Source: Candidatus Iainarchaeum sp. (GTDB taxonomy: Archaea; Iainarchaeota; Iainarchaeia; Iainarchaeales; VGJJ01). From it: a DNA stretch of 32,000 bases. The stretch covers positions 1 to 32,000 of the forward strand of contig JAUYHT010000002.1 in assembly GCA_030688545.1 (NCBI GenBank), read 5' to 3'. Below the pieces are notes generated by a model. That model was not told the origin of the DNA. It searched no databases and saw nothing but the letters and a program-made list of their open reading frames with translations. The position numbers and the translations under genes were made by a program. Shown here one piece after another: positions 1,251 through 18,534 of this stretch; position 1 is the first letter of the stretch; each line of letters opens with the position of its first letter.

Positions 1251-2474
1251 ATGAGTGTCCGAGAAAGTAAAGGAATAGAACTTGCGAAATCCTCGCTCAT
1301 TGATGAGACGAAGGAAGGTTGAATAGTTTCAAGCCAATCAGACAATCGAAGATATTTTATCAAAAAGGATTTTTCGTGCAACTGCCTTGACCATCAAACT
1401 CGAAATGTGAAATGTAAGCACGCTTATGCTGTTGAATTCTTTTTACAAAAACCAGTTTCCAGAATGCAGTCAATAGTTCAACCTATCCGTGAACCGCGTA
1501 AAACTTATTCTCAAATTTGGCCTGCGTATAACAAAAGTCAAACGAGTGAAAAAGAGTTATTCTTGCAGTTGCTTGCAGACTTAACGAAAAGTGAAAGCGA
1601 GAAACATTTTGGAAGACCCAGTGCAAATATGGGAGAGATGGCATTCTGTTGTGTGTTGAAAGTCTATACTCATTTTTCGACTCGACGTGCAAACACTGAC
1701 ATAAAAGACGCTTTCCAGAAAGGATTAATCGGCACACCGTATCACTATAACACGATTATCAAATATTTTGATGAACCCGAACTTACCAAACTATTACAGA
1801 AGCTAATTTTTCTCTCTGCTTCTCCACTTACAACAGTTGAGAAAAAGTTTGCTATAGATAGTAGTGGATTTAGAACAACTCAGTTTAATGAATACGCGAA
1901 AGAGAAGCACGGAACGAAGAAAGAACATCAATGGGTCAAAGTCCACGTTTTATCTGGGACAAAAACGAATATCATTTGTGCGATTGATATTGGTGAGGAA
2001 AATAGTGGAGACAGTCCACGACTGATTCCTTTGACACAACAAACTTTGGATAATGGTTTCAAAATGGAAGAACTCTCCGGCGATAAAGCATATTCCAGTC
2101 GAGACAATCTCTCATTCTTGAATGATAATGGAGTAATGCCATTCATTCCTTTCAGAAAGAATATGACAGCTAACGCGAAAGGTGGAGGATATATTTGGAA
2201 GAAAATGTATCACTATTTTCATTACAACCAAGAGCAGTTTCTTCAGCATTATCACGCTCGCTCAAATGCAGAGTCTACTTTTCGTATGATTAAGGCAAAA
2301 TTCAACGATACCATTCGTTCCAAGAAGAAAACGGCTCAAACCAATGAAATGCTCAGTAAAATCTTGTGTCACAATATCGTTGTGCTAATCCACGAAATGC
2401 ACGAACTCGGCATTAAACCCGATTTTTGCACACAAAGTCCCTTCGATGCCCACAAAGACGACTTTAAAGGCTAG
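1251..2474 (+). pseudogene. IS4/IS5-like DDE transposase with N-terminal SWIM zinc finger, interrupted by an in-frame TGA at 1320..1322
   Basis: The track ORF 1407..2474 starts at a GTG inside the SWIM finger. The same frame is open from ATG 1251 except for TGA 1320: MSVRESKGIELAKSSLIDETKEG*IVSSQSDNRRYFIKKDFSCNCLDHQTRNVKCKHAYAV (CxC...CxH). The C-terminal part carries SGDKAYSS and YHARSNAESTFRMIKAKF (the Y-x2-R-x3-E-x6-K signature of IS4/IS5 DDE enzymes). Confidence 0.7.
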
Positions 2475-3511
2475 TTAATGGGCAAAGCCCATCCCACCAG
2501 GAGGCCGCCCAGCGCCCCCTGGGCGATAATAAAAATAATGATGGAAATGAGGAATATCCCCGGGGCCCAGCGCACCCCCAAAAGGGGTTTGCCTGACCCA
2601 ATCATTCCCATGAACAAGGAACCCAGGATCGCATTACCAAAGAGCAGGATATAGGCCACGCTCACCAGGAAATCAGGGGTAATTCCAACCGTGCCCCCCA
2701 GAAAACCAACGGCCCCCGCATTGGCAGTGGCAAACGAGGCCTGTCCCTGAATCCGGGAGACCAGACGGATGAACTCCACGGCCACCGCCATGAGGAGGGG
2801 GGTGGCGATCATCATGACGAATCCGACGAAGATGACATAGGTTTTGGTGCTCGTCTGCAATTCCTTCTTCAACTCCTGGGATTGCCTTAATTCAGCCGAG
2901 GTGTTCTCGAGGAGCTGGGCCATCTTTCCCCCGCTTCGTACAGCCTGGAGAAAGAAACGGATGGTCTCATTCAAATTTTTGGATTTAATATTGGAGGTAA
3001 TGCGCGACAAGGCCGAAGCAAATGAATTGACCCCCAACGAACGGGAAGTAACCGTCCTTATTTCCTGGGAGAGCGGACCGAATTCGGGGCGCGCACTGCT
3101 CTTGAACGCCGAAAAGCTCGTCATCCCCGCGCGCACATTTCCAGCGACCAAGAGGAGGAAGTCTGGAAGGATATCTTCCACCATCCTCCGGCGTTTCTCA
3201 ACAAGATAATACAAGTGCCACACCCTCAATCCTAATCCTAACGCGAGACCGGTGATAATTCCTATGCCCGCACTCCATAGTGAAGTAATTTCCCCACCCG
3301 GGAGGAGGGTGGCCAACCAAGCGTTGAGGATACCCACCCCGAGATAAAACAGTATACCCCCGCCCAATCCCCCCAAAAAAACAATCAAAAGGGTTTTGGC
3401 CAACCACGCGTGCCCATCCTCCAAACCGCCTTGACGCGCAGCCTCAGCGACCCGCGTCTGCCATTTGTCAGGAAAAAGACGGACAATCCGGTAGGATAAT
3501 GCGCGCATCAT
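2471..3511 (-). CDS. Type IV pilus platform membrane protein, single T2SSF domain (TadC/FlaJ-like)
   Basis: 346 aa and polytopic. The block EDILPDFLLLVAGNVRAGMTSFSAFKSS...ETIRFFLQAVRSGGKMAQLLENTSAELR is typical of GspF/TadBC/FlaJ domains. An ATGA overlap links it to the upstream gene. Confidence 0.8.
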   Translation of the reverse strand: MMRALSYRIVRLFPDKWQTRVAEAARQGGLEDGHAWLAKTLLIVFLGGLGGGILFYLGVGILNAWLATLLPGGEITSLWSAGIGIITGLALGLGLRVWHLYYLVEKRRRMVEDILPDFLLLVAGNVRAGMTSFSAFKSSARPEFGPLSQEIRTVTSRSLGVNSFASALSRITSNIKSKNLNETIRFFLQAVRSGGKMAQLLENTSAELRQSQELKKELQTSTKTYVIFVGFVMMIATPLLMAVAVEFIRLVSRIQGQASFATANAGAVGFLGGTVGITPDFLVSVAYILLFGNAILGSLFMGMIGSGKPLLGVRWAPGIFLISIIIFIIAQGALGGLLVGWALPIN

Positions 3512-4398
3512 TCTTTGTACCCCGCGGGAATGCGCGTGCCGATGAAACCTATAAGGAGAACTTGGATGATAAAGGCAAACCCGATCGTCATGAAAATAGT
3601 ATCATTTCCCACACTGGTGCCCCCAATAGAAGACAGGATGACCAGGAAGGTGATTCCTATCGTGGGAACGGCGGCGGCGATCAACAGGTAAATAAGGATC
3701 CACATGTTGAGTTCCGCCGCATAATCCTTGATGTGCCGCGACTGGAAATCGGAGAGGGATTGGGAAATGGCTTGTAATGCCGCGCTAACACTGCTTCCTG
3801 TTCGGATGGACGTCACCAGTTGCCACACCACTTTCTTCAAGAAATGGGAATCCGTGCGAAGGGCCAGCCTTTCCAACGCGGCCGCCTCGGTGACACCGGC
3901 ATTGATCTCTTGCACCACGACTTCGAATTCTTCAGAAATATGACCATACCCCGCTCGCGCGACATTGGACATGGCATCATACAACCCCACCCCCGAATTC
4001 ACCTGGATGAGTAAACTCTTGAGGGCATAGGTCAAACTTTGATCCACCTCCACCGCATTCTTCTGGGCTAACAACCGGGGATAAATCAGATGCAACCCCA
4101 ACGCCGACATCCCCGCTACAACTCCGGCAACCACTCCCAATTTGATCCCATTTTCCAACCCCCCATCCGGGGAAATGAAACCAACTCCCAAAAATAGGAG
4201 GCCTAATACCAATGCGTACAATCCGGCTGAAACGAACGCGGCCGCGAGATACGCCTCAGGAGTGATGCGCAAATGGGCATAGCGTAATGAATCCTCCAAA
4301 AAACGAAAAATGCGCAAAAAAGGTCGCGCCGCTCCGGTAACGCGGGAAGGGAGCTTATTCGCCTGCTCCATGGTCAACAGCATAAACCGGACACGCAT
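3508..4398 (-). CDS. Type IV pilus platform membrane protein, single T2SSF domain (TadB/FlaJ-like)
   Basis: 296 aa. It contains YALKSLLIQVNSGVGLYDAMSNVARAGYGHISEEFEVVVQEINAGVTEAAALERLALRT followed by C-terminal TM segments. It starts 9 nt after the ATPase stop. Confidence 0.8.
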   Translation of the reverse strand: MRVRFMLLTMEQANKLPSRVTGAARPFLRIFRFLEDSLRYAHLRITPEAYLAAAFVSAGLYALVLGLLFLGVGFISPDGGLENGIKLGVVAGVVAGMSALGLHLIYPRLLAQKNAVEVDQSLTYALKSLLIQVNSGVGLYDAMSNVARAGYGHISEEFEVVVQEINAGVTEAAALERLALRTDSHFLKKVVWQLVTSIRTGSSVSAALQAISQSLSDFQSRHIKDYAAELNMWILIYLLIAAAVPTIGITFLVILSSIGGTSVGNDTIFMTIGFAFIIQVLLIGFIGTRIPAGYKE

Positions 4399-4407
4399 AC
4401 TATTTAT

Positions 4408-6267
4408 TCACCCCAAACCCAGGGAGGGGTCCATGTCCTGGCGCGCGGCTTCCTTCACCTTATCGGGATCCGCATAGAAGACCTGCATCACTTTTCCCAC
4501 TTGGGAAATATCCCCCCATTTCCGGCGGACCAACCATTCCAATATCATCATCCGATCCTCCACTTCATCCTTGATCTCCCGCTCGGAGAGGCCGGTGTGC
4601 ATATTCAGCTTCTGGATCAACCGCACGGGCTCCGCCACTTTCTCCCACACGTCCTCGCGCGCGGTCCACCTAAACACCTCATTGGTTCCCACGGAAGCCG
4701 TGCCCGTGCCCCCTTCTATCTCGGCAATCTCATAGACCCGGCGCTGATTGGATTTGCGATCGCGGTATTGGACGATAATCAAATCAATCGCTTCCACCTC
4801 CACCGCTGGCACATTCAAAGGGGGCTCGATGAGCCGGCGCAACACCTGACGCGCAGAATCCGCGTGGATGGTGGCATACACACTATGCCCCGTATGCATG
4901 GCCTCAAACAATGTTTCCGCCTCCTCCTGCGTGCGCATCTCCCCCATAACTAATCTGTCTGGTCGCATGCGCAATGACGACACTAATAGGTCGAGCATGG
5001 ACACCTCCCCCGTGCCTTCCGGGTTGGGATTGCGCGTGGTCAAGGGCACCCAATTCCACCGCATGTGCTCGGGGAGATTCAATTCCCTGACATCTTCGAT
5101 AGTAATGATGCGCTGGTGCGCAGGGATGAAGGCAAGTAAGGCATTCAGGGCACTCGTTTTCCCGGAAGCCGTCGAGCCCGCGATGAGAATAGAGAGCTCA
5201 TACTGCATCGCCAGCCATACCCACGCGGCCATCTCGGTGGACATCGTCTTGTCTTCCCCGATGAAATTAATAATTGTCCATGGTTTTCGCGAGAAGCGGC
5301 GAATAGTCAACGTGTTCCCATTGGAAGAAATAGGAAATAGGGTCGCATTCACCCGATCACCCGAGAGCAGGTGGGCATCCAGGATGGGATTCAAATTAGT
5401 AATTTCCCGACCCACCTTTCTTCCTATTTGAGCGGAGAGATTCTGGATATGTTCCTCATTCTGCATTATTAAATTAGTTTTCATCCACCCATACTTGAGA
5501 TGGTATACCGTTACCGGGGATTTGGCGGAGTTGATGGCGATCTCCTCCAGGTTATCATCGGCCCCTAAAATCTCCAATTCCCCCAATCCATAGAGGTTGT
5601 GCAACAACTGCCCGGCCATGGATCCCACTAATTCCTTTCCGAATCCAGGGAGGCGCTTGGCCAATTCTTGTTTGGCAATTTTTCCAAATTGGTGCTTGAG
5701 ATTTTGGGCCTGCTGCACATCCGACAAATCGATGGCTTCAATGGGGATGGCGGCGGCCACGCTATCCCTCAATTCTTCCAACAAGAGTTGGGTATAAGGA
5801 CCAAACGTCTGGACCTGCAATGAGTAAAACGGCCGGTTGTCCCCCACCGCATGGATTATGTTTACCCTGGCTGGAACCTCGTCCGCGGAGAACGCATACT
5901 CCTCCATCACTTCTCCTGCGGGAGGGGGGAGGATATTATCTTCTAATGCCTTTTCCAACGTCACTTTAGGGGATTGGATGAGCGACGCGGGATACGCCAA
6001 CTTCACGATCTCCCGCCGCTCGAACATCTTCAATACCCTTTCTAAGTCTTCGGTTTTCCACCGCGCCTCCCGGGCCAACTGGGACAATAACACCTCTCGC
6101 TTTCCCTGGAGGAGGCGCATGACGGCATCAATCAACAAGGGTCCTTCTCCCGTTTCCACTTGGAAGGATGCTGCCCTGGTCTCCGGAGGGGCTTCCTCCG
6201 GGGAAATAGTATGGGGATACGTGATGGCATCCGCCGATTCCAGCTTCACGGGGGGAATATCCGGCAT
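4408..6267 (-). CDS. FlaI/PilB/VirB11-family secretion ATPase (archaeal type IV pilus assembly ATPase)
   Basis: Walker A is GSTASGKTSALNALL, the Asp box is RIITIEDVRELNL, and Walker B/His box is RPDRLVMGEMRTQEEAETLFEAMHTGHSVYATIHA. The ORF is open up to 6351. However, the TATA box at 6289..6298 sits 29 nt upstream of ATG 6267 (MPDIPPVKLE), and the tRNA begins only 30 nt beyond 6351. Confidence 0.9.
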   Translation of the reverse strand: MPDIPPVKLESADAITYPHTISPEEAPPETRAASFQVETGEGPLLIDAVMRLLQGKREVLLSQLAREARWKTEDLERVLKMFERREIVKLAYPASLIQSPKVTLEKALEDNILPPPAGEVMEEYAFSADEVPARVNIIHAVGDNRPFYSLQVQTFGPYTQLLLEELRDSVAAAIPIEAIDLSDVQQAQNLKHQFGKIAKQELAKRLPGFGKELVGSMAGQLLHNLYGLGELEILGADDNLEEIAINSAKSPVTVYHLKYGWMKTNLIMQNEEHIQNLSAQIGRKVGREITNLNPILDAHLLSGDRVNATLFPISSNGNTLTIRRFSRKPWTIINFIGEDKTMSTEMAAWVWLAMQYELSILIAGSTASGKTSALNALLAFIPAHQRIITIEDVRELNLPEHMRWNWVPLTTRNPNPEGTGEVSMLDLLVSSLRMRPDRLVMGEMRTQEEAETLFEAMHTGHSVYATIHADSARQVLRRLIEPPLNVPAVEVEAIDLIIVQYRDRKSNQRRVYEIAEIEGGTGTASVGTNEVFRWTAREDVWEKVAEPVRLIQKLNMHTGLSEREIKDEVEDRMMILEWLVRRKWGDISQVGKVMQVFYADPDKVKEAARQDMDPSLGLG

Positions 6268-6288
6268 ACGGGGGGAAACCGAATGAAC

Positions 6289-6298
6289 CTTATATAGG
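6289..6298 (-). promoter_or_regulatory. TATA box (minus strand CCTATATAAG) for a leaderless ATPase-platform transcript
   Basis: The first T is 29 nt upstream of ATG 6267, the same spacing seen at about ten other genes in the window. Confidence 0.55.
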
Positions 6299-6381
6299 AT
6301 AACCATTCCTCCGGCAAGCGCCTGCTTTTTATGGGTACCATCCCCCATCATGCTAAATCCAAACGCGGCCCATTCACCCCA

Positions 6382-6805: not shown

Positions 6806-6928
6806 ACTCGCTTTCGATCGAGCGCTCCAAAATAGAGGGGTCGCTTCGCGGTCCTTCGGTTGATAAAGACTTCATCAATTGTTACGAAATAATTTTTGGC
6901 TGCTCGTTCGCGGAGTACATTTAGTCAA

Positions 6929-6962
6929 TGTCTCTTGAGACAGGGTGATGATTTTTTTTTTT
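6929..6962 (+). terminator. Stem-loop plus T11 tract; candidate terminator for plus-strand transcription of tRNA-Ser plus the repeat array
   Basis: tgtctc-tt-gagaca lies at 6929..6942, followed by 11 consecutive T at 6952..6962. Oligo-T tracts act as archaeal terminators. Confidence 0.45.
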
Positions 6963-6965
6963 AAA

Positions 6966-7838
6966 CTACCCCGCCACCCAAATGGTATTCGTGTCCACAT
7001 TGGCATCGATACCCCGGATGGTGAGGTTGAGATCGTATCCTCCGCGGGTGCCATTGATGTCGTTCAGCATGTCCCAGCGCACCGCGTACTTCACTTTGGC
7101 TACTGAGGGGTTGGCGAGGATCATCTGATAGGTGCCCTCCCCTTCTCCCGAGAGGAAACGGATGGAAAACGTATCGTTCCCCCCCATCGGGGGAGAATAG
7201 GTCCAGCTCGCGGTGTAGGACAAATCATAATCCAGGTCATAGATCTCGGTTACGGTTTGAGAAGCATTGGTGTCCCGGTAATGCAGATAGACCCGCACGT
7301 CGGCATCCCCTTCCTCCCCCACCGAGAGAGGAGTGTACGTCCCCGCATTCCGGTCCGCAATCGCATTGATATCAAGGATGAGGGGATGTGTTCTTTCATT
7401 CGAAGCCAAAAGGATGAGCGTATTAGTGTCAAGGGATTGCTTCCATACCAATCCTGTGTCGGTCCGCCCGGTGAGGTTGCCATCGGTCAATGTCTGAGTG
7501 AGACCTAAAGATATGAGCAGGTTTTGGTCCTCTCCAAAAGTAGTGAGGCGGCTCGAATATGCCTGGAGATTCCCATTCAAATCTAATGGAGAGGGAATAA
7601 ATCCATTCATGAAAAGAGACGCATGGGTATCATTCTGGTCGATCCGGAGATGCTGATCTAAAAGGGAATTGAAATCCAAGGAAATATCCTGGGCCACTCG
7701 AAGCGGCCGAAGAAGCGTCCACCCCTCACTTCGATCCACTTGCAACCCAAAAAAATGGGTGGCCATGAGCTGGGCGAATAGGAGAAGGAAGAGCGCCAGG
7801 ACAAAGGTGGCGAAACTCAGGACAAATCCTTTGTTCAT
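6966..7838 (-). CDS. Pilin-like protein with class III (prepilin-type) signal peptide
   Basis: The start at ATG 7838 forms an ATGA overlap with the upstream stop. The N-terminus is MNKG/FVLSFATFVLALFLLLFAQL. The track ORF extends to 7871. Confidence 0.75.
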   Translation of the reverse strand: MNKGFVLSFATFVLALFLLLFAQLMATHFFGLQVDRSEGWTLLRPLRVAQDISLDFNSLLDQHLRIDQNDTHASLFMNGFIPSPLDLNGNLQAYSSRLTTFGEDQNLLISLGLTQTLTDGNLTGRTDTGLVWKQSLDTNTLILLASNERTHPLILDINAIADRNAGTYTPLSVGEEGDADVRVYLHYRDTNASQTVTEIYDLDYDLSYTASWTYSPPMGGNDTFSIRFLSGEGEGTYQMILANPSVAKVKYAVRWDMLNDINGTRGGYDLNLTIRGIDANVDTNTIWVAG

Positions 7839-8275
7839 CCGGATGGCCATGCCGTCACCTCCACCACCCAAAAATTAGCATCCGGGGGAGTAGGGACGAT
7901 GAATCCATGACGCACGCGCTCCACCCCCGCGGTCTGGAGCACGCACCCGGTTTTGGTGACGATGAACGCGGCGATATTCGAATCCGGAGAAGAGAACACC
8001 TGCACACTCCCGCACAATGTGGCGGGCCACGCGTCGATAACCGAACGAATAGGAGTTGTATTGTCGAGGATAACCCCCTCCTGGAGCAATTGTCCCTGTT
8101 CCAAAGCAAACGCCGCTCGGGTGACCAATTCACGTAAAACGGTTTGGTTCTCCAATCCAGTGCCCGGGGTATTTATAGTTTCAAACGCCAGCCCCACTAA
8201 CGCGAAAAGGATGGCGAGCGCCAGCAGCGCATCGGTGGCGATGACGAATCCATTTTGAGACCAAAGCAATACCAT
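7835..8275 (-). CDS. Pilin-like protein with class III-type N-terminus
   Basis: ATG 8275 lies 1 nt after the upstream TAA. The N-terminus is MVLLWSQNG/FVIATDALLALAILFALVGL. The track ORF extends to 8341 across the upstream gene. Confidence 0.7.
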   Translation of the reverse strand: MVLLWSQNGFVIATDALLALAILFALVGLAFETINTPGTGLENQTVLRELVTRAAFALEQGQLLQEGVILDNTTPIRSVIDAWPATLCGSVQVFSSPDSNIAAFIVTKTGCVLQTAGVERVRHGFIVPTPPDANFWVVEVTAWPSG

Positions 8276-8276
8276 A

Positions 8277-8774
8277 TTACTCCCCCCACACCTGGAGGAT
8301 GGCCACCACGTTCTCGCCCGCATACACGGTGGGAATGACAATCACATTCACCTGGTTCACATCCACGGGGGCGGTGCCGGCCTGGGAGAGGGTTTGACGG
8401 TTGGTATCCTGCAAAGTAATGTAGAAGTTAACATCGGGGATACGCAGGGCCGTTTTGAGGCTGGGGTAATCATCCCCATTCCAATCCCGCAAGGCCGCCC
8501 ATTTGGAGGAGGAAATTTGCATGCCATTCTCGATCAACCCCACACTCGTAATACCATTCCGGTCAGACAGATGATCCCAATACACCGGGTTCCCGGGGCT
8601 TCCGAATAAGGCCTGCGCGACTCCCTCTGCCCGACGCGCGGATTGAAACCTAAGGATTTGATCCACGGCCTGCTGTTCCAATTGGGATGAGAGCAAGGCG
8701 ATCATGGTCAAGGCGAATAGAAAGATGGTGATGGCGAGGAGGGCGTCCGAACTATACAATTGTCCTTTTCTCAT
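8277..8774 (-). CDS. Pilin-like protein with class III signal peptide
   Basis: The N-terminus is MRKG/QLYSSDALLAITIFLFALTMIALL. An ATGA overlap links it to the upstream gene. Confidence 0.8.
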   Translation of the reverse strand: MRKGQLYSSDALLAITIFLFALTMIALLSSQLEQQAVDQILRFQSARRAEGVAQALFGSPGNPVYWDHLSDRNGITSVGLIENGMQISSSKWAALRDWNGDDYPSLKTALRIPDVNFYITLQDTNRQTLSQAGTAPVDVNQVNVIVIPTVYAGENVVAILQVWGE

Positions 8775-9139
8775 GAGGATCCCCTCATCCAGAAATACCC
8801 ATATTCATCCTTTCCCGCCTCGAAAAAGTTTCCATCGGCGATTCCTGTTCCAAGCCATGTAGTATCCATCACGGGAGCAGAAGCATACGCCCGGGTACTC
8901 CGTACCTCCACCACTCCATTCTGCACGATAATGGTTTGAGGTTCAAGCGAGGGAGGAAGAAACACTCGCACCTCACTCCCGGGCGGACCTAACCCTATTC
9001 CATTCACGGTAAGCGCCACCTCCTGAGCGGCCCTCTGGGCCTCATGCTGTATTTGGAGGGCATCGATGGAGATGATTTGCTGGCCGAATAATGAAATAGC
9101 AATCCCGAGGATGATGAGGAGTAAAGGAAGAACGAGCAT
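8771..9139 (-). CDS. Pilin-like protein; the canonical ATG is at 9139, but the class III motif is encoded upstream of it (to 9178)
   Basis: The frame continues upstream to the TGA of the preceding gene: TGA-ATC-CCT-CCT-CTT-CGG-AAG-GCG-CAA-GCC-ACT-ATT-GAG-ATC-ATG, which reads IPPLRKA/QATIEIMLVLPLLLIILGIAISLF. No ATG, GTG or TTG is available between 9140 and 9178. Confidence 0.65.
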   Translation of the reverse strand: MLVLPLLLIILGIAISLFGQQIISIDALQIQHEAQRAAQEVALTVNGIGLGPPGSEVRVFLPPSLEPQTIIVQNGVVEVRSTRAYASAPVMDTTWLGTGIADGNFFEAGKDEYGYFWMRGSS

Positions 9140-9178
9140 GATCTCAATAGTGGCTTGCGCCTTCCGAAGAGGAGGGAT

Positions 9179-11698
9179 TCAGACCCCTCCCAATGAAATA
9201 TGCTGGTCGAAAATCGCATTCATATCCGAAAACCCTTGGAATAAATCCAGATGAAGTCGCGTGGGGGAAGGGATATGGACTGCGTTTCCATCATAGCGGT
9301 AATTCGAATTGATGATGGTGGTAGAGAGGAGATTGATGCCTAACGAAAATGGATAACTAGGATCTCCCACATAATTGGGCGCCGAACCTGGCACGCCCGG
9401 GGTGTTTGCCACCGGATACCACACTCTCACGTCCCGCAGGCGCGTGCTGTTAAAGCCGAGGGTGACAATGTACGTATTATTGGCATTCGTGTCATCGGCA
9501 ATACGGAGATGCACATTCTTGTCTCCGCTTGATGAAACGAATTTGGTGAGGAGAAATTGGTTCACATCTGGCATGGATAAGGGAGGGGTGCCCGCATAGG
9601 TTCGAGCGAAAGGGATGATGTCAAAATCTCCCAGGGAATACCTGAAAGTATTTCGCGGCCGCGCCACGGGGGAGTTGGAAAAGCCACTATTGTTATCCGC
9701 CTCATCCAAGAAGACGAGAGAGAAATAATAGTCCAATCCCGCATTGAGATCTGTTACCAGTATTGTCCCCGCGGATCCCCCCTGGAGAAAAGGGCCATTG
9801 AATGAAAAACTGTTGGCGGCATCGAATTGAGCTGGGGTGGCGATGGAGGTGGGGGAATATTTCACGACAGCACTGGAAACAGTCCCCGAGTAATTATCAT
9901 CCCCCGGATACGTGAATCGGAGGAGTACCGATTCGGCGTCCGAACCGGATTCGGCGGTGAAATTGAGCACGCTTCCCGGAGGCGTAATATCTTGCGCGCA
10001 CCCGGATCCCAATATTGTTCCCGTGTATTGGGTGCCATCCCCAAATGAAACAACAGGTTGAAACTGCTCATTCTCATCCGAGATGACCGAACTGAAGAGT
10101 ATCTCATTGTCTGAAAGAACACCGGATGCGGAGAGAGTGACATCGCTCACGTCCAATTCATCCCCATCTCCTCCACTTCCCGAAAAGACAGTGTTGCCGT
10201 CGATGACCAGGGTATTCACCACCCCCCTCTCAGTATCGCAGTTCCACCACCGCTGAAGGATAATCGAGGAGATGACTAGGGGTTGGCTGCCCGTGTTACG
10301 AAGGGTAAACCCATCCACGATAGATTCTTCCGCGGTGGCCCCGCTCCAATCCCACTGAAAATAGGCGCTTCCCCCATTAACTTGGACTTCCACCCCCAGG
10401 ATGAGGTGGTTGGCTCCCGTGAAATCAGTGATCGAAACGCTCCCCGTATACAACCCCAAATCAGTTCCACCGGGTACCGTCACCTCCACGTTTACATTTT
10501 GGCACGATTGGGCCGAAAGAGATGATATGATGGAAATGGGCGTAATCCAGTCACCCGCGTTCCCGGAGGAGGGGGTGAAGGATAAGTTGGTGAGGGGAGT
10601 TTGGCCCACGTTGCAAAGCTGGAGGGTCAGGGAATTGGTATCTGCTCCCAGGGTAGAAAAACGCAAAACGGAAGGAACAGACGTGAGCAACCCCTGCGTA
10701 TTGGGAAACACCTCCACATTCACTGGAATAGTTATTGATTCCGGGGTGCCGCTGATGTCCGCATTCATGGTAAGATACCCCACGTAATTCCCAATGGCAG
10801 TGGATTCCGAATAAAAATTCAGGTCCACGTTTTGGGATTCCCCCGGAGAGAGGGTAAAGACCGAAGGTCCAATGGATGCATCCACTAATGTATGGTCCCA
10901 CGTCCACACCAATACTGTATCCGCATCCTGCGTCCCCGTGTTTGAAAAAACCACCCGCGCACTGGCATTGGCATCCCGGGGCATCGCCACATACACGCTA
11001 TCCACATCACTCGTCACTGTTGAGAGGCTGATGAGAACGGAATCCGCATCAGACACTAACCGAAAACGGACTAACCCGGGTTGGCTTGGAATCGTCCCGC
11101 GCAGGGAAGGAATGGCTGTCCCTGCGATTTGGAAATCATACACCTGGAGGATGATGGATCGTCCTTCCAAACGTGAACGGGACGAATCAACCCCCCGCGG
11201 CCAGGGGATGATAATATCACGTGTATTCCCGGGCCCCAAAGAATATACCTCATCGATTTCCCGGATTAACCGTTGCACCCCCTCCTGACCTAACCGAATG
11301 GCATGCTGTTTTTCCACTCGGGAAACCTGGTTCACCGTAAAATCCACGAGCGCCGCCAGCAACACCAATGAGATGGCGAGCACGATCAATAATTCCACGC
11401 TGCTCTGCCCGGCCGTTTTCGTCCGGCCGCCCCGAGGGACGAGGGAGGTCTTTGACCTCCCAGCAGCCAAAACGATTGGTTTCCTTCCGATGCACGCTCT
11501 CGATCGTGCGCTCCGATGGATGAGGGGGATTTTCAATCCCCCGGCGGCCGAATCAATGGGTTTCATTCCAAAGCACGCTTTCGATCGGTCAAATCGACTT
11601 CGATATTTTTTACGAAAAGGATGATTACTTTTGATTGAGCGCTTCAAGGGTCGAAGAGGATTTTCTACCCCCTGACGGCCATGACTTCTATTTGTCAT
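9179..11698 (-). CDS. Giant pilin-headed surface protein (class III signal, Ig/CARDB-like repeats, FN3-like domain), paralog B
   Basis: The cleavage-type motif TAG/QSSVELLIVLAISLVLLAALV is encoded at about 11410. The ORF is open to ATG 11698 (ATGA overlap with paralog A). Alternative starts are ATG 11566 and TTG 11470. TTG 11470 gives the leader MAAGRSKTSLVPRGGRTKTAG, which parallels paralog A. There are four conserved Cys. Confidence 0.8.
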   Translation of the reverse strand: MTNRSHGRQGVENPLRPLKRSIKSNHPFRKKYRSRFDRSKACFGMKPIDSAAGGLKIPLIHRSARSRACIGRKPIVLAAGRSKTSLVPRGGRTKTAGQSSVELLIVLAISLVLLAALVDFTVNQVSRVEKQHAIRLGQEGVQRLIREIDEVYSLGPGNTRDIIIPWPRGVDSSRSRLEGRSIILQVYDFQIAGTAIPSLRGTIPSQPGLVRFRLVSDADSVLISLSTVTSDVDSVYVAMPRDANASARVVFSNTGTQDADTVLVWTWDHTLVDASIGPSVFTLSPGESQNVDLNFYSESTAIGNYVGYLTMNADISGTPESITIPVNVEVFPNTQGLLTSVPSVLRFSTLGADTNSLTLQLCNVGQTPLTNLSFTPSSGNAGDWITPISIISSLSAQSCQNVNVEVTVPGGTDLGLYTGSVSITDFTGANHLILGVEVQVNGGSAYFQWDWSGATAEESIVDGFTLRNTGSQPLVISSIILQRWWNCDTERGVVNTLVIDGNTVFSGSGGDGDELDVSDVTLSASGVLSDNEILFSSVISDENEQFQPVVSFGDGTQYTGTILGSGCAQDITPPGSVLNFTAESGSDAESVLLRFTYPGDDNYSGTVSSAVVKYSPTSIATPAQFDAANSFSFNGPFLQGGSAGTILVTDLNAGLDYYFSLVFLDEADNNSGFSNSPVARPRNTFRYSLGDFDIIPFARTYAGTPPLSMPDVNQFLLTKFVSSSGDKNVHLRIADDTNANNTYIVTLGFNSTRLRDVRVWYPVANTPGVPGSAPNYVGDPSYPFSLGINLLSTTIINSNYRYDGNAVHIPSPTRLHLDLFQGFSDMNAIFDQHISLGGV
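11410..11590. repeat. Three tandem 81-nt copies of the two-hairpin module, upstream of or overlapping the 5' end of paralog B
   Basis: Hairpins are cggccg-ttttcgtc-cggccg (11410..11429) with ggaggtc-ttt-gacctcc (11444..11460), then gcacg-ctctcgat-cgtgc (11492..11509) with gggggat-tttca-atccccc (11524..11542). A partial copy, gcacgctttcgatcggtc, lies at 11573..11590. Confidence 0.8.
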
Positions 11699-14046
11699 AC
11701 GTCACTTCCCCCAGTATCATAAGGGTCGGTCCCCTCGGTCATATTATGGCTCATGTTGAAGTCAATTATCCCCAAAACTACATCCAAATACAGGTCATTA
11801 GGCACCCCCATTCCCACACGGATGCCATTATATCTCCGATTAGAAGGAAATTCGATGGAGTCGATGAGATCTACCCCGCCCGATATCGGGAGGGACTTGG
11901 CAGTGTCATAATTAGCGCTAGTGGACAGATAATTGGCCGGTGCCGGGTACCAAAAACGGACGCGGTTGATGTCAGTCGCATTCATGTCCACGGCAGCGGC
12001 CCATACATTTCCGGTGTTCACATCTTCCACTATGCGGAAGGCGATCCGGGCAAAAGTTACGGCGTCCCCTAATTGGATTTGATGAAGGCGCATTTTATTG
12101 ACATCACTAATCCCAACAGGAGTGGAACTCCCAGGATAGGAACTAGCGAAATAGCTGAAATTGAAATCCCCTCCCGTGAAACGGTATTCGTTCCATGGGC
12201 GTTGCTTGGGGGAATTGGATAACCCACTCATGTTTCCATTCTCGTCCTCAAAGCGGATGGACCAATAACGTGAAAGTCCGGCCATCTGATCGGCGACCAC
12301 GAAAGAGCCAGCGGTTCCTCCTGCTGGGAGGGGAAGGGGGCCGGGCCATGTCAGAGTAGTGGCTCCGTTCCAATCCACCTCCGAATCAATTACTGCCTCA
12401 CTCTTCTTGAGGGTAGCATACACGGCATTCCCAGTGTAGTTGTCGTCCCCCGGATAAGTGAAAGTAATGGCCACGGTGCCCGGCTCCGCACCGGGAACCA
12501 CTATCAAATCCGTCACCGTGGCGGGAGGCGTTACATCACCTGTGCATCCCGGACCAAAGGACGCGCTCGTGTATTCCGACCCATCTGAAAAGGTGACTAC
12601 CGCGCGGAAAGTCTCATTATCATCCTGGATGTTATCGTTGAAAACCAAGGTGTTATCCGAATAGGAGGTCAGCACGGGCAGGGTAACATCTGAAGTATCA
12701 GCTGTGTTTCCGTCCTGGAGGCTTCCTGAGAAGATAACCCCCCCATCCACTTCCATCTGTTCCCAATAGGAATGGGAAAGATCGCATTGCCACCAATCCT
12801 GCAATTTGACATGGGTGAAGGTGATGGGTTTCCCGCCTCGATTAGTCAATGTATAACCCGTAATGGCATTCACCGTTTTTCCCCCCGTGGTCCAATCCCA
12901 ATCGAAGAAGGCGCTCATTCCCAATACGGAGAGAGCGACCGGAATAGTCAAGGTATGGCTGCCCGTGAAATCGGAGAGGAAAAGCGACCCATAGTAGGTG
13001 CCCAACCCCGCGTCAGGGACGTGGGCCACAAGGTCAAAATTGGTGCAGGATTGGGCACTCAAAACAGGGAGGGTGGGTAGGCCCTCCAACCAATCTCCTG
13101 GGTCCCCAGAGGAAGGGGTGAAGGTGAGGGATTGGATGTCCGAATCCCCCACATTGCATAATTGGATGGCGACGCTATTGGTATCCGCGCCGAAGGTGCT
13201 CATCTCCACCGAAGCAGGAAAAGCCACGAGAGGGGAGCCCTGGCCCACGAGAACGCTGGTGCTCAGAGGGAGGCGCAGCGTCTCGGTGTTTCCTGGAAAA
13301 GTCGCGGTAATTGAAAGCATCCCCGTATAGGTCCCCACGGCCGTGGCCCCACTTGAAAAATTGACGTCGAAGGGAAACGTGGCATTCCCTAGGATGGTTC
13401 CTCCTGAAGGAAAAACGATCCCATTCATGTCCACGTGATTAAAATCCATGGCCATAACCAGGGAAGCATCCTCGTCCGACGAATTAGTTAGGGTTACACG
13501 TACGCTCGCATCCTCATTCCGGAGCAACGTCACATGGACCCGAGAAGGGTCCCCCGTTAATCGGGCGTCCCCCAAAAGGACATATCCCTCAAACGCTTTC
13601 ACTCGGAAGAACTGATTGCCCGAATGGGAAGGGAGGGAACCCGCGAGAAAAGGAATGGTTTCCCGTGCGATCTGGGAATCATACACTTGCACCACTATCG
13701 CATGATTTCCAACATACGTGTCAGAAGCATTAACCCCCTCCGGCCACACTAATTGGATTTGGCGCGTGGCCCCCGGGCCTTGGGCATACACCTCTTCTAC
13801 CGCTCGGGCGATGTTTTCCAATGCTAACTCTCCTGTCTTTATATCGCGCTGTTTCTGGAGCGCGCTGATCTGGTCGGCCGTGAACGCCACGAGCACCGCG
13901 AGGATGACCAACCCCGCCGCGAAAAGGACAAGGACTTCTACGCTGCTCTGCCCGCACGCTCTCGATCGTGCGCTCCGATGGACGAGGGGATTCTTCGAAT
14001 CCCCGGCGGCCGCCATTGCTGATTTCAATCGTGCGTCCGCGTCCAT
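11695..14046 (-). CDS. Giant pilin-headed surface protein, paralog A
   Basis: The signal is ...NPLVHRSARSRACG/QSSVEVLVLFAAGLVILAVLVAF. ATG 14046 is 29 nt downstream of the TATA box at 14068..14077. Other possible ATGs are 14061 and 14016. It aligns with paralog B along its whole length, for example FGADTNS..QLCNVG, FTPSSG..GDW, SAQSC, TPP...FTYPGDDNY.G. Confidence 0.85.
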   Translation of the reverse strand: MDADARLKSAMAAAGDSKNPLVHRSARSRACGQSSVEVLVLFAAGLVILAVLVAFTADQISALQKQRDIKTGELALENIARAVEEVYAQGPGATRQIQLVWPEGVNASDTYVGNHAIVVQVYDSQIARETIPFLAGSLPSHSGNQFFRVKAFEGYVLLGDARLTGDPSRVHVTLLRNEDASVRVTLTNSSDEDASLVMAMDFNHVDMNGIVFPSGGTILGNATFPFDVNFSSGATAVGTYTGMLSITATFPGNTETLRLPLSTSVLVGQGSPLVAFPASVEMSTFGADTNSVAIQLCNVGDSDIQSLTFTPSSGDPGDWLEGLPTLPVLSAQSCTNFDLVAHVPDAGLGTYYGSLFLSDFTGSHTLTIPVALSVLGMSAFFDWDWTTGGKTVNAITGYTLTNRGGKPITFTHVKLQDWWQCDLSHSYWEQMEVDGGVIFSGSLQDGNTADTSDVTLPVLTSYSDNTLVFNDNIQDDNETFRAVVTFSDGSEYTSASFGPGCTGDVTPPATVTDLIVVPGAEPGTVAITFTYPGDDNYTGNAVYATLKKSEAVIDSEVDWNGATTLTWPGPLPLPAGGTAGSFVVADQMAGLSRYWSIRFEDENGNMSGLSNSPKQRPWNEYRFTGGDFNFSYFASSYPGSSTPVGISDVNKMRLHQIQLGDAVTFARIAFRIVEDVNTGNVWAAAVDMNATDINRVRFWYPAPANYLSTSANYDTAKSLPISGGVDLIDSIEFPSNRRYNGIRVGMGVPNDLYLDVVLGIIDFNMSHNMTEGTDPYDTGGSDV
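13954..14004. repeat. Single copy of the two-hairpin module, lying inside the leader-peptide codons of paralog A
   Basis: gcacg-ctctcgat-cgtgc (13954..13971), linker gctccgatggacga, then ggggattc-ttc-gaatcccc (13986..14004). The hairpin-1 region and linker (about 35 nt) are nearly identical to the 11492..11542 copy, while the hairpin-2 stem differs. Confidence 0.8.
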
Positions 14047-14067
14047 GGGCTGACAACCCATCCCGGG

Positions 14068-14290: not shown

Positions 14291-14518
14291 TCATTCCTCG
14301 ATGGGCATGGCGCGGATAAGGTGCTTGGAGCGTGCATACGCCCACAATATTCCCACGAGCGAAGCCGTGGCGATGAGATAATACACCAGCGCATCCAACA
14401 GCTGGCGATTCAACTGGGAGAGAATTCCCTCAATCAGGGTGAAGGCGAACACCACCAATAGTACGAGCGAGCTCGTGAGGAGGAGGGTAACCTTCACCGT
14501 ATCCATGATCTCGGACAT
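14291..14518 (-). CDS. Small two-TM membrane protein, unknown function
   Basis: 75 aa, MSEIMDTVKVTLLLTSSLVLLVVFAFTLIEG...YYLIATASLVGILWAYA. A TATA box at 14541..14550 lies 29 nt upstream of the ATG. Confidence 0.6.
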   Translation of the reverse strand: MSEIMDTVKVTLLLTSSLVLLVVFAFTLIEGILSQLNRQLLDALVYYLIATASLVGILWAYARSKHLIRAMPIEE

Positions 14519-14540
14519 GCCATGAAAGAAAAAATCCGAG

Positions 14541-14550
14541 TATAAAAGGG
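14541..14550 (-). promoter_or_regulatory. TATA box (minus strand CCCTTTTATA)
   Basis: 29-nt spacing to ATG 14518. Confidence 0.5.
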
Positions 14551-14641
14551 TTCCTCGGTTTGGCTCTGTCGTAATGTTGTCTGGTAAGGGTTAGGTGTCG
14601 TATTCGTTAGTATTAAAGAGCAGAGTCTCTTTTTTTGAATT

Positions 14642-14965
14642 ATGGGTTTTTTTCAAAAACTTGGGAAAACTATTAATGTAATACTAAAACGCGAATTTTC
14701 TTCTGCCTACATTAGAAAAAGCAGAGAGGATTGGAGTGGAATATATCATGGGGAAGTGAGTCAGGGAAAAAATAAAGGGTGGAGTGGACTAATATATTTC
14801 GCTATGCAAAAAGGCAGCTTTGCGGTCGGACCACTGCCAGCTTTTTATCGTGGAAGAAAAATAAAACATTGGGTTAGAGTTGATGATGATGAAACGAACC
14901 CACATCGTCCAATTTTTTATAAACAAAAAAGAAGAAATCGAAGGCTCCGACACACAAAACATTAG
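14642..14965 (+). CDS. Hypothetical protein in the AT-rich islet
   Basis: 107 aa, basic C-terminus. A TATTAAAG box lies about 29 nt upstream. I recognise no family. Confidence 0.4.
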   Translation: MGFFQKLGKTINVILKREFSSAYIRKSREDWSGIYHGEVSQGKNKGWSGLIYFAMQKGSFAVGPLPAFYRGRKIKHWVRVDDDETNPHRPIFYKQKRRNRRLRHTKH

Positions 14966-15014
14966 ATACTTTTTTCTATGAGATTTTTCCATTTGTTTCT
15001 TTTCAATCCTAAAT

Positions 15015-15497
15015 TTATTTTGGTCTTGATCTTTTTCTCCTGGCAAGACCAGCTCTGTTAGGTTTTTCATAACGAGTGTCAAACCCAGATGGAAGGTAAA
15101 CACGTTCAGGTTGTAGCTTCGGTAAATGAGCACTATCGAGTTGCATCACCCCTCTCCCTATTATTTTTTTGAAAGGAAAAAGAATACGTTTCCCGCTTTT
15201 AGTTATGAACTTTCCTGGGGGCTGAAATCCAAATTTTCTAAGTGAAGTCATTGTTTTGGCAATGGCATCATTGTGTTGTTCGGTGGTGGTAACGTTTAGT
15301 GGAATTTTATTTAACTCCTTCAATCGTTCTCTTTCTATAGCATAAATTTGTTCATATGGAAAATTGAAACGTTTATAGAAAAAAGGGGCAATGGTAAGCA
15401 TTCGTGTAACAGGGCCATTTCTATCTATGAGCTTCTGCCATCTTAAAAGTTCAATAAAATCCCAAATAGATGAAATGGATCTCTTCTTTTCAGGCAT
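15015..15497 (-). CDS. Hypothetical protein in the AT-rich islet
   Basis: 160 aa. A TTATTAAA box has its first T at 15526, 29 nt upstream of ATG 15497. I recognise no family. Confidence 0.5.
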   Translation of the reverse strand: MPEKKRSISSIWDFIELLRWQKLIDRNGPVTRMLTIAPFFYKRFNFPYEQIYAIERERLKELNKIPLNVTTTEQHNDAIAKTMTSLRKFGFQPPGKFITKSGKRILFPFKKIIGRGVMQLDSAHLPKLQPERVYLPSGFDTRYEKPNRAGLARRKRSRPK

Positions 15498-15557
15498 ATT
15501 AACAGCTAACTTACCAAGTTTAATAACATTTCGAAATATCTGAACTGATTATACTAG

Positions 15558-15641
15558 CGCAGGGAACGAGATTCGAACTCGTGCCTCCGTGAGGAGACCG
15601 GCTTTCCAGACCGGCGCGTTAGACCACTCCGCCATCCCTGC
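15558..15641 (-). tRNA. tRNA-Ser(GGA): tRNA-Ser, anticodon GGA, type II
   Basis: The reverse complement folds as gcaggga acceptor, ccggt-CTGGAAA-gccgg anticodon arm, variable arm ctcc-tcac-ggag, and T arm acgag-ttcgaat-ctcgt. Total 84 nt. Confidence 0.9.
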
Positions 15642-15741
15642 CTGATTTGGAGAATGGATGCCATCTCCAGGTCTACCAAACCGTGCAGGCGTACGCATAA
15701 AAAGAGGTGCTTGACCCAGTTTTCATGAGGTGGGAGGAAGG

Positions 15742-18411
15742 TTATTGGTCTGGGATAGAGATTTTCGAGGAACTTGAAATGACGACTCCATCCTCAAAGC
15801 CGTATCCATATCCGAATCCGTAGCTGAGCCCCCGCAAGCGGTCTAAAACCCCTTGCAGCTCGGGCACCCATTGGTAAGCCTCGAGCGTAATGGTTTTCGA
15901 TGCATCCCCTCGTGTAATGGTCACTTTTTCAGTTTGCCCATCCGCACACCCCGGACACCCAAACGTGTCAGGGAGGGTTTGGAAGGAAGCCCAATCCACT
16001 TCCTCTGCGGTGTCAAAATAGGTGCTGCCTGCCGCACGGGTTTCTGTTTTTATCTCGCCTTGCTCGGGAGAGAAATGCTGGATGGTCAACGCTTCCGCAT
16101 CCAATACCACTTGATCATACGGGCAGGCGTTATCCTTGCAAAATCCTCCGCCCCGCCAATACGTGAAAGAATAATCCCCCGGCACGGGGTTGAAACGGAT
16201 TTCTTTGATTTGGTTCAGGGTGGATATGTCATGCGCCTGGATGAGTTTAGGGGACACCGTATAGAGTGTATCTCCGATGGTTAGCGCGCGGCGCACGCGA
16301 TATTCCTCTCCAAAATAATACCCGCGTTTCAGGTCGTCCTCTTGCGTAAGGTGGGTGATGCGTCCGCGCTCGACAAACCCATTATCTAAATCAACCTGGT
16401 ACACGAATGCTCCCTGGAACACTGGTTCCCCGTAGGGGGGGAAATCCATCCACGGATTCTCATCCCTTTGGGTTTCGTATTGCTGCTTCACGTCTTCCGT
16501 AATCTCATGCAATTGGATGGGCAGCACCAATAAGCCTTTTTCTTTATCAAAGAGGAAGGCCTTGTGGTCGTATAGCACATCCGAATCCGTGCCCCGATCA
16601 CCAATCACAACCGAATGCAACTGGATGGGGTTTTTCACATCTGAGACATCGAATATCGCCATCTTCATCCCCAAGTACCAGGCGAAATCATTCTTACCTG
16701 ATTCGAGGGCGTCCTTGCCTATCCCGATGAGGTGTGTCTCATCATACGGGTGCAAATAATTGGAATACCCGGGGATCTTGAGTTTTCCAAGCACTGTGGG
16801 ATTGCGTGGGTTGCTTAAATCCAAAACAAATAATGGGTCCACATTCTTGAATGTCACGAGATAGCCCCTATCTCCCATGAAGCGGGCGGAATAAATTTGC
16901 TCACCGGGGGCTAAACCATCCAATACTCCCACGGGCGCCATGGCCGGATTGAATATGGTGACGCGGCTCTCCGTTTTTGAGGTTTCCATCCCACGGAAAT
17001 CCCATTGACCATCCACCGTGGTGGCGATGCGGAAGAATCCATTATGGGCGTCCATAGAGAACTGATTGAGCACTCGGCCTATGGCCTTTCCCTGGCCTAC
17101 GTATTCAACTGTATTCCCCTTCAAATCAAATTTATGGATAATGGTTTGAGGGGGTTGATACACGTATTCGGGGGGCACTGGAAAAGTTTCAGGGATCTCC
17201 GGAGCGGGCTCTATTTCAGGGGGATTCTCTGGAGCAACCGGGGGTCGTTCTTGTTCATCACTCGGGAGGGGGGTTTGGGTATCCTCATCCGGGGTTGTGG
17301 GAGGAGAAGGATCGGAACTTGAACCACCTGAAACGGAACCGGGTTCAGCTCTGCCAACCATGAGGGGCATGGGCAATCCAACCCCCCATTCGGAGGAGGC
17401 GAGGTACATACTATTCTCCGACGCGTACACCGTTTGGGCGGAACCCACAATGGTCTCCTGGTTCACGCGCAAGGTATCCAAACGCATGGCAGCGAGGGTG
17501 ATGAACTGCTCCGCCTGGATGGGGGGAATATAGCCAATTCTCTCAGGGGCCGCAATGGGTCTAATTACTCCATCTTCTTCCATCTGGGGAATAATAGGGA
17601 TGTCTTTGGCATTAGGTGTATCCATTTGTGCCCAAATTTGATATTGGGGGTATGATGTAATTACGAAATACACTTGTTTACCTATCATGCGGGAGGAGAG
17701 ATACGTGCCCTCATAGGCCAAATCCTTCTCAAGGGTGGGGTTGGAACGGTCTGAAATATCATACACCTGCACCACGGCCTTAGAGATGCTCCAATAGGGG
17801 GGATAGATGGCCGAATCGATTGCAATGCGGGTTTCGCCTTCACGACCTTTTTCACTGTATGGATAGGGATAATCTCCTTGTTCCTGCTTGGTGCCGAAAA
17901 GGATGAGTTGGTTCCCATTCACAAACATCTCCTGGGGATAGATATTATCCAAGGGAATACGAGTGACCACATTGGTTTCACCCGCGGGATAGGCTTTCAC
18001 GATGGCCACGCTGTTCTTGTAAAACGCGTAGATATAAGTCCCATCCGTTTTCACGATATCGGCCTCATCCACGCCTTGCACTTGCACGTTCGTTTGAGAG
18101 TAATTGTTTCCACTCGGTGAAGGGGAAGCGTCTCCACTTCCTTCTGCCGCGGAAGGGGCGCGGGCCGCATTATCCATCGTCATTATCATTTTAGAGGAGA
18201 ACCCACGCGATTGCGCGTCCTGAAACGCGGCGACAATGGCTTGCTCATTCTCAAAACGGTAAATCTTGTCTTCCAGCTTGGGCTGGCCGGGCAATATCGT
18301 GGGATTCATCACCGCGAGCCCCGCGATAACTACCCCCACCAGTATCAATACCGCCAAAATGGTTACACTTCCTCTTTGCATGCTGTTCGCCTCCAAGCCT
18401 ATGGGTTGCAT
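15742..18411 (-). CDS. Membrane-anchored extracellular beta-propeller domain protein (COG4880 / Beta_propel-type)
   Basis: The N-terminal anchor is MQRGSVTILAVLILVGVVIAGLAV. The block YSQTNVQVQGVDEADIVKTDGTYIYAF is the hallmark N-terminal motif of this family. There is a Pro/Glu-rich linker. ATG 18411 fits the TATA box at 18432..18443 better than ATG 18417. Confidence 0.75.
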   Translation of the reverse strand: MQPIGLEANSMQRGSVTILAVLILVGVVIAGLAVMNPTILPGQPKLEDKIYRFENEQAIVAAFQDAQSRGFSSKMIMTMDNAARAPSAAEGSGDASPSPSGNNYSQTNVQVQGVDEADIVKTDGTYIYAFYKNSVAIVKAYPAGETNVVTRIPLDNIYPQEMFVNGNQLILFGTKQEQGDYPYPYSEKGREGETRIAIDSAIYPPYWSISKAVVQVYDISDRSNPTLEKDLAYEGTYLSSRMIGKQVYFVITSYPQYQIWAQMDTPNAKDIPIIPQMEEDGVIRPIAAPERIGYIPPIQAEQFITLAAMRLDTLRVNQETIVGSAQTVYASENSMYLASSEWGVGLPMPLMVGRAEPGSVSGGSSSDPSPPTTPDEDTQTPLPSDEQERPPVAPENPPEIEPAPEIPETFPVPPEYVYQPPQTIIHKFDLKGNTVEYVGQGKAIGRVLNQFSMDAHNGFFRIATTVDGQWDFRGMETSKTESRVTIFNPAMAPVGVLDGLAPGEQIYSARFMGDRGYLVTFKNVDPLFVLDLSNPRNPTVLGKLKIPGYSNYLHPYDETHLIGIGKDALESGKNDFAWYLGMKMAIFDVSDVKNPIQLHSVVIGDRGTDSDVLYDHKAFLFDKEKGLLVLPIQLHEITEDVKQQYETQRDENPWMDFPPYGEPVFQGAFVYQVDLDNGFVERGRITHLTQEDDLKRGYYFGEEYRVRRALTIGDTLYTVSPKLIQAHDISTLNQIKEIRFNPVPGDYSFTYWRGGGFCKDNACPYDQVVLDAEALTIQHFSPEQGEIKTETRAAGSTYFDTAEEVDWASFQTLPDTFGCPGCADGQTEKVTITRGDASKTITLEAYQWVPELQGVLDRLRGLSYGFGYGYGFEDGVVISSSSKISIPDQ

Positions 18412-18534
18412 GTACACCCCTTCCCTGCCCGCCTTTATATATCGCCGCGAATGCGAAGGGAATCGCCTTTCCCCAGTGACAGGAAAGGAAATCCTAACCT
18501 AATTTCCGGCTAAATTGACATCCATTTTCCAATC

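Follow-up and report, generated by a model that had tools for sequence, protein, structure and literature searches.

Two tandem archaeal proteins with a pilin-like head and a multi-domain beta body as candidate modular minor pilins of a type IV filament operon

Bacterial modular type IV pilins, among them PilB and PilC of Streptococcus sanguinis, CofB of enterotoxigenic Escherichia coli and TcpB of Vibrio cholerae, combine a small N-terminal pilin module with C-terminal effector modules, in many cases of the lectin or beta-sandwich type (Raynaud et al. 2021, PMC8179133). They reach sizes of up to 860 amino acids (aa), and both a position at the pilus tip and a function in adhesion have been predicted or shown for them (PMC8179133). 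Archaeal loci of clade 1/system 1 (Epd-like) encode an ATPase, two TadC-like platform genes, several minor pilins and two large secreted proteins predicted as tip adhesins (Makarova et al. 2016, PMC4858521; Sivabalasarma and Albers 2026, PMC13705601). System 1 has been reported in Nanobdellati (DPANN) (PMC13705601), and the type IV filament loci of DPANN archaea consist mostly of "dark matter", i.e., genes of unknown function (PMC6393860, PMC13705601). Here, we describe two adjacent genes, termed A and B, of the DPANN archaeon Candidatus Iainarchaeum sp., each of which encodes a predicted pilin head followed by a long chain of immunoglobulin-like (Ig-like), fibronectin type III (FN3) and other beta domains. 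They lie in a stretch of 32,000 nucleotides, referred to as the window (C4:1-32000; contig C4 is JAUYHT010000002.1), of a genome with 1.13 Mb in 9 contigs and a completeness of 96%. We propose that A and B are probably archaeal modular minor type IV pilins that belong to the filament of the adjacent operon and act as adhesins.

Like the bacterial modular pilins, A and B join a pilin module to C-terminal beta domains. They differ in being archaeal, with a QxSxE class III motif in place of the bacterial IPR012902 N-methylation motif, in carrying five appended beta domains as a long rod, and in being two ancient paralogs kept in tandem; no sequence or Foldseek match between A/B and the bacterial proteins was present among the matches listed. 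The very large size of the two proteins, which the initial annotation of this DNA had set against the 100-200 aa of typical pilins, is not unprecedented in light of the 860 aa attained in bacteria and of the large class III proteins predicted as archaeal adhesins (PMC8179133, PMC4858521). The A/B locus resembles the clade 1/system 1 loci in its ATPase, its two platform genes, its several minor pilins and the two large secreted proteins, but it lacks an EppA-type peptidase and FleN/MinD, and DUF2341, the domain carried by the large system 1 proteins, gave no hit at E ≤ 0.1 in A or B and none at E ≤ 5 in the separate domains of A. Archaeal class III signal proteins (Pfam PF04021) are substrates of PibD, FlaK and EppA. 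A and B resemble them in a predicted cleavage site after G/A, with Q-x-[ST]-x-E and then a hydrophobic helix behind it, while they depart from them in scoring below PF04021, in a residue at position -2 that is not basic, and in leaders several times as long as the 4-8 aa seen in most orthologs of the genus. Finally, the joint presence of four small pilins, large adhesin(s) and a beta-propeller protein in one locus recalls, by analogy only, PilY1/PilC and the four minor pilins of bacterial type IVa pili, although PilY1 is not a pilin and its propeller belongs to another family than PF09826.

Two paralogs and their pilin-like head

Genes A and B are adjacent open reading frames that lie in tandem on the minus strand:

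11695..14061, minus strand: gene A; longest open reading frame from ATG 14061, stop codon 11695-11697, mature protein of 751 aa
9179..11698, minus strand: gene B; longest open reading frame from ATG 11698, stop codon 9179-9181, mature protein of 742 aa from 11407

The proteins share 39% identity across 763 aligned residues (E = 0), and the view of the initial annotation that they are tandem giant paralogs was thus borne out. Gene A has an alternative start at ATG 14046, which is the start whose position is kept by the orthologs. The start of gene B at ATG 11698 overlaps the TGA of gene A, and ATG 11566 (53-aa leader) and TTG 11470 (21-aa leader) are further candidates. In both proteins, the motif G↓QSSVE (the arrow marks the predicted cleavage site) precedes a hydrophobic run of about 20 residues. 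The motif and the helix were therefore correctly recognized at the outset, but the proteins do not begin at the G↓Q site as had been stated, because basic leaders of 22-37 aa (A) or 21-53 aa (B), depending on the start codon, precede it. Each mature protein contains exactly four Cys residues, at positions 265/302/389/469 in A and 265/302/390/470 in B. Their aligned placement had been noted before, and we found all four to be invariant in family alignments of 13 and 22 sequences; the two pairs are predicted to form disulfides. The supposed abundance of N-x-S/T sequons, on the other hand, did not hold up, since their number is not enriched relative to composition (11 versus 7.0 ± 2.3 in A, 7 versus 8.6 ± 2.6 in B). 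"Hypothetical protein" and "uncharacterized" were the only source names seen for homologs of the family. NCBIfam provided no name for A, for the head of B or for the small pilins of the operon, and no Pfam or NCBIfam model covers the pilin head of either protein.

The identity of the head was addressed by a separate structure model and by profile comparison with the small pilins encoded in the operon, in particular with the product of the gene next to B:

13567..13950, minus strand: pilin head of A; Q1-S-S-V-E5, alpha-1 helix of 54-57 residues of which the first ~20 are hydrophobic, five-strand antiparallel beta meander; the head sheet spans residues 84-148 in the full model
8771..9178, minus strand: small pilin p122; LRKA↓QATIE, mature protein of 128 aa, immediately downstream of B

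The head model, comprising mature residues 1-132, was obtained with a predicted local distance difference test (pLDDT) score of 90.8 and a predicted template modelling (pTM) score of 0.75. It consists of a helix from residue 2 to 57 and a five-strand antiparallel meander, an arrangement that, as modelled, corresponds to the general layout of a type IV pilin. A hydrophobic segment of about 20 residues opens the long alpha-1 helix, as is typical of archaeal class III proteins, both in the sequence and in the AlphaFold model, and none of 19 head sequences deviates at Q1 or E5. When the head was compared with the p122 family using hhalign, the two aligned with 95.7% probability (E 9e-9) over 86 columns, from the helix through a G-P-G turn common to both and into the first strands. 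The remaining three small pilin families of the operon, used as controls, reached 0.5, 3.5 and 0.2%. Because all three controls stayed at 3.5% or less, the match to p122 goes beyond shared hydrophobicity. By this profile comparison, the head of A and B is homologous to the stand-alone small pilin p122 and not to the other three small pilins, and A and B resemble a p122-type pilin module extended by about 620 residues.

Domain chain and variable distal end

An AlphaFold2 model of full-length A, built from a 22-sequence alignment, reached a mean pLDDT of 82.7 and a pTM of 0.40; given this pTM, the model does not fix the relative orientation of the domains. It shows a disordered leader, a single helix from residue 26 to 79 and only strands after residue 80, confirming that the body of the protein is rich in beta structure, as had been read from the sequence. 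Following the pilin module, A and B thus contain extra folded domains, namely a chain of Ig-like, FN3 and further beta domains, which were delimited in A as follows:

13243..13566, minus strand: Ig-like domain 1, model residues ~151-258; the equivalent region of B matches Pfam PF22544 above the cut-off
12916..13242, minus strand: Ig-like domain 2, model residues ~259-367; invariant Cys pair at codons 13156-13158 and 13045-13047
12541..12915, minus strand: beta domain 3, model residues ~368-492; WDW...WW.CD motif, second invariant Cys pair at codons 12784-12786 and 12544-12546, at the start and the end of the domain
12187..12540, minus strand: FN3 domain, model residues ~493-610; TPP..V.DL...FTYPGDD...DE.GN.S..SN
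11698..12186, minus strand: C-terminal beta-sandwich domain, model residues ~611-765; highest divergence within the family (mean pairwise identity 0.29)

The HYDIN/VesB-like Ig domain (PF22544) in B was the only Pfam domain above threshold; NPCBM_assoc (E 0.0091) and DUF1573 (E 0.042) were matched in B below it. A Foldseek search with the whole model of A retrieved tandem Ig/FN3 chains, i.e., hydin-like ciliary proteins, receptor phosphatases and contactins, with E-values of about 1e-15 to 1e-9 among the 50 matches listed. Together with PF22544, these matches uphold the Ig-like part of the earlier description of the repeated blocks as CARDB/Ig-like; the CARDB part was not sustained, as matches to the clan remained below threshold. 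We considered functional homology to ciliary hydin-like proteins or receptor phosphatases and rejected it, because the matches of the whole model are to generic tandem Ig/FN3 chains.

Evidence for the FN3 domain came from an exhaustive search with the family profile, which returned about 9,900 proteins. Among the best 150 of these, the majority align via profile positions 475-590, with up to 39 repeats per protein, and two proteins matching these positions are fn3 according to Pfam. In addition, the family profile aligned weakly (E 0.034) to the FnIII domain of chitinase A1 (PDB 1k85). We regard the predicted FN3 assignment in A and B as solid, and the segment initially described as FN3-like indeed corresponds to FN3 repeats in thousands of proteins. 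No family was matched by beta domain 3, whose profile gave nothing significant against PDB sequences, or by the C-terminal sandwich. A Pfam hint to Arch_flagellin for beta domain 3 (E 0.014) was rejected, as it was reproduced in just one of 15 family members. No substrate-binding-protein domain came up in A or B in the searches with Pfam, NCBIfam and the separate domains.

The family is matched in all 16 other genomes of the genus, with two tandem copies in at least 11 of these 16, while other families of the order mostly match the N-terminal 350-530 residues only. In the phylogenetic tree, A-type and B-type sequences form separate clades with strong support (99/98 and 100/99, respectively); the duplication is hence older than the genus, and both copies have persisted. 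Identity per domain is highest in the head and Ig-like domain 2 (0.42-0.47) and lowest in the C-terminal domain (0.29). Distant relatives, which range in length from 600 to 1,532 aa, retain the class III signal and the first 470-540 positions and carry other C-terminal modules, including Laminin_G_3, H_lectin, Big_7 and DUF7035. Such a conserved carrier with a variable distal end would be the pattern expected of adhesins.

Operon, leaders and a dispersed repeat

Downstream of B and p122, the minus strand encodes further class III pilin-like proteins and the core components of a type IV filament system, and two more conserved genes lie upstream of A:

8277..8774, minus strand: small class III pilin-like protein p165; MRKG↓QLYSSD
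7835..8275, minus strand: small class III pilin-like protein p168; QNG↓FVIATD
6966..7850, minus strand: class III pilin-like protein p301; MNKG↓FVLSF, without an acidic residue at +5/+6
4408..6351, minus strand: secretion ATPase; T2SSE, FlaI/TadA-like
2471..4398, minus strand: split platform protein in TadB/TadC style; 3508..4398 corresponds to the N-terminal half and 2471..3511 to the C-terminal half of ArlJ/UpsF, with one T2SSF domain each
14291..14518, minus strand: 75-aa membrane protein; kept in the operon of relatives
15742..18417, minus strand: PF09826 beta-propeller protein with an N-terminal membrane helix

The combination of T2SSE, T2SSF and several class III proteins that defines a type IV filament operon is present and is kept across relatives. 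Two related contigs have the same order, consisting of an A-type and a B-type gene, four small pilins (all with RG↓Q or RG↓F), a membrane protein of 75-87 aa, the PF09826 propeller, the ATPase and T2SSF. The propeller and the small membrane protein are located between the pilins and the ATPase in these relatives (L001:17097-20058, L002:9113-11990); in the window, they have been relocated upstream of A (14291-18417), next to tRNA-Ser(GGA). Their old position (6382-6966) is now occupied by tRNA-Ser(TGA) and repeats, and on the plus strand a DDE transposase (1407-2474) directly adjoins the operon's end. Among the small pilins, p301 is the largest, and the other five class III proteins of the operon do have an acidic residue at +5/+6; by analogy with GspK-type tip pilins, p301 may be a filament-capping subunit.

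Genome-wide, two prepilin peptidase genes (Peptidase_A24, PF01478) and six T2SSE-type ATPases were found. A second type IV filament locus (C6:76900-86000) comprises an A24 peptidase, an ATPase, three short Flp/Epd-like pilins (47-52 aa when mature, Q-x-[AS]-[LI]-E) and several larger class III proteins. Other large class III-headed proteins are encoded at C7:3454 (mature protein of 525 aa) and C4:292399 (418 aa), so pilin-headed large proteins in this genome are not limited to A and B.

The sequences ahead of the cleavage sites of A and B have an unusual composition:

13951..14046, minus strand: leader of A, MDADARLKSAMAAAGDSKNPLVHRSARSRACG; predicted cleavage after G, codon 13951-13953
11408..11698, minus strand: region upstream of the B cleavage site; same hairpin repeat, all open in the B frame

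Bases 13954-14013 of the A leader are one 60-nucleotide copy of a dispersed two-hairpin repeat, inserted in frame. With its two hairpins and conserved flanks, this element sits exactly between the start region and the GGG CAG codons of the G↓Q site. The roughly 290 nucleotides before the G↓Q site of B contain, likewise in frame, at least two good and about two decayed copies. The element of about 60 nucleotides has the form GGCCGCYG-hairpin-YCGTCCMTCGG-second hairpin, and 22 strict copies were counted in the genome, mostly intergenic and often in tandem, in which several stem variants are still complementary; the about 20 repeat sites outside the two leaders include C4:163065-163318, C3:181579-181715 and C3:191312-191456. 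An Rfam search of the leader regions returned no family. Position -2 is occupied by C in A and by A in B, and basic residues are still found at -4 in both leaders. Orthologs from the same genus mostly have leaders of 4-8 residues, e.g., MDKG↓Q, MRSRG↓Q and MNRG↓Q, behind a conserved upstream context. Long in-frame leaders also occur on the A-type orthologs of two other lineages (48 aa, L001:10001-10144; 45 aa, L002:2120-2254), which keep the frame of the conserved start codon and have a TPTRG motif in common. The insert in the second of these (genome G011) is not a dispersed repeat, as it matched only itself in its own genome. Since the frame is kept in every insertion case, the data suggest that the long leaders are translated and are tolerated because they are removed.

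The small pilin p122 is atypical in another respect. No ATG, GTG or TTG lies ahead of its class III site (window 9157-9181), and its frame runs directly on from the TGA of gene B, which suggests a non-canonical start, reinitiation or readthrough. Its orthologs start with an ATG, and their leaders measure about 11-13 aa.

Proposed function and competing explanations

In our working model, A and B would be made with a class III signal, and one of the two A24 prepilin peptidases of the genome would cut after the Gly, exposing Q1...E5 and the hydrophobic alpha-1 helix. The adjacent ATPase and the split platform protein would then pull the helix from the membrane and insert the head of about 130 residues into a filament whose core is probably formed by the head-only paralog p122, possibly together with other pilins. 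The remaining ~620 residues, i.e., the two Ig-like domains, the presumably disulfide-clamped beta domain, the FN3 domain and the variable C-terminal sandwich, would project at the tip or as sparse lateral decorations, and the projecting rods would serve as an adhesin for surfaces or partner cells. Because both ancient paralogs have been retained, distinct roles of A and B or action as a pair are probable. The idea of a tip or decorating adhesin fits the fast divergence of the C-terminus, the exchange of C-terminal modules in relatives and the precedent of the bacterial modular pilins. Cleavage, incorporation into the filament, position on it and adhesion are all predicted steps.

Several observations weigh against this model. 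No pilin appeared among the 50 listed matches of the head model in a Foldseek search against the PDB, none of which fell below E 0.1 and the best of which (E 0.14 or worse) were OB-like folds, and the sequence profiles of the head and of p122 matched no solved pilin among the PDB sequences. Hence, the structure check proposed in the initial annotation had a divided outcome, with a confident helix and five-strand meander on the one hand and no solved pilin matched on the other. The same applies to the overall description of a type IV pilin head on an Ig/FN3 body: the class III-type motif, the homology to p122 and the multi-domain body support it, but the fold of the head is unconfirmed against solved structures. 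Neither A nor B reached the Pfam model Class_IIIsignal (PF04021), on which some of their relatives score weakly. Residue -2 is K/R in most other predicted class III proteins of the genome and in most orthologs, in contrast to the Cys of A and the Ala of B, and the non-basic -2 residue together with long leaders of translated repeat may render processing inefficient. Moreover, the locus contains no small Flp-like major pilin of about 50-70 aa.

The absence of an obvious major pilin could also be explained if A and B were surface proteins that use the class III signal for export or anchoring only, with the helix, cleaved or not, staying in the membrane or in a short pseudopilus and the Ig/FN3 rods forming a coat or a binding layer similar to the Sulfolobus bindosome. 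Class III signals are widespread on archaeal surface proteins that do not form filaments (PMC13705601), B has a weak NCBIfam match to a putative S-layer (surface layer) protein (E 0.0013, far below the cut-off), and rods of about 750 aa could span the cell envelope by their length. We nevertheless consider this explanation somewhat unlikely, as Q1/E5 are retained in a head that is homologous to a free-standing small pilin, four further pilin-like genes, the ATPase and the platform protein are co-conserved with A and B, and the proteins lack a detectable substrate-binding-protein domain. Alternatively, A and/or B might themselves be the major subunits of a thick filament, in which the heads build the helical core and each subunit bears an Ig/FN3 arm of ~620 residues, resulting in a bottle-brush fibre. 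Both genes stand first in the operon and keep Q1/E5, and the Flp-like pilins missing from this locus are present in the locus on contig C6. Yet an arm of five domains on every subunit is sterically demanding in type IV filament lattices. The bimodular pilin PilB, when modelled in the filament body, clashed with neighbouring pilins (PMC8179133), and p122 as a head-only paralog in the same operon is the more natural core subunit, which makes this arrangement quite improbable.

A different concern is whether A and B are crippled in this particular genome, the repeat insertions having destroyed the short leader and the basic -2 residue and led to poor production or processing, in which case the intact bodies would merely reflect a recent event. 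The contrast between the 4-8 aa leaders with K/R at -2 of most orthologs and the repeat-derived leaders of 21-53 aa with C or A at -2 speaks in its favor, as does the lack of a canonical start codon in the downstream p122. Against it, both bodies are full length and free of stops, with all family-invariant residues including the four Cys in place. The insertions keep the frame, 60 nucleotides having been inserted in A; basic residues are still present at -4; a few other predicted class III proteins of the genome likewise do without K/R at -2; and the in-frame leaders of 45-48 aa on the A-type gene of two other lineages indicate that long leaders are tolerated. Taken together, this makes such an impairment very improbable, and a role as modular minor pilins with an adhesive rod is the explanation we favor. 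An extended version of it, in which A and B form a conserved heteromeric Ig/FN3 stalk adhesin of about 20 nm that co-polymerises with p122 on a Tad/Epd-like pilus, constituting a partner-cell attachment organelle of small-genome DPANN archaea, and in which the cleavable leader is a tolerated landing site where the dispersed hairpin module was recruited as the source of start codon and basic leader peptide, appears unlikely to us in this complete form.

Through A and B, modular pilins, a class already known, would gain a so far unannotated archaeal family; a new type of system is not implied. This family is newly defined here by a pilin module on an Ig/FN3 rod, kept as a tandem pair across the genus, with lectin-type swaps at the distal end in distant relatives. 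The long leaders imply that class III leaders can absorb long in-frame insertions, which bears on motif-based predictors. As the machinery for cell-cell attachment in DPANN archaea is largely unknown, A and B represent concrete adhesin candidates, and they bear on the size of the cargo that an archaeal pilus can carry.

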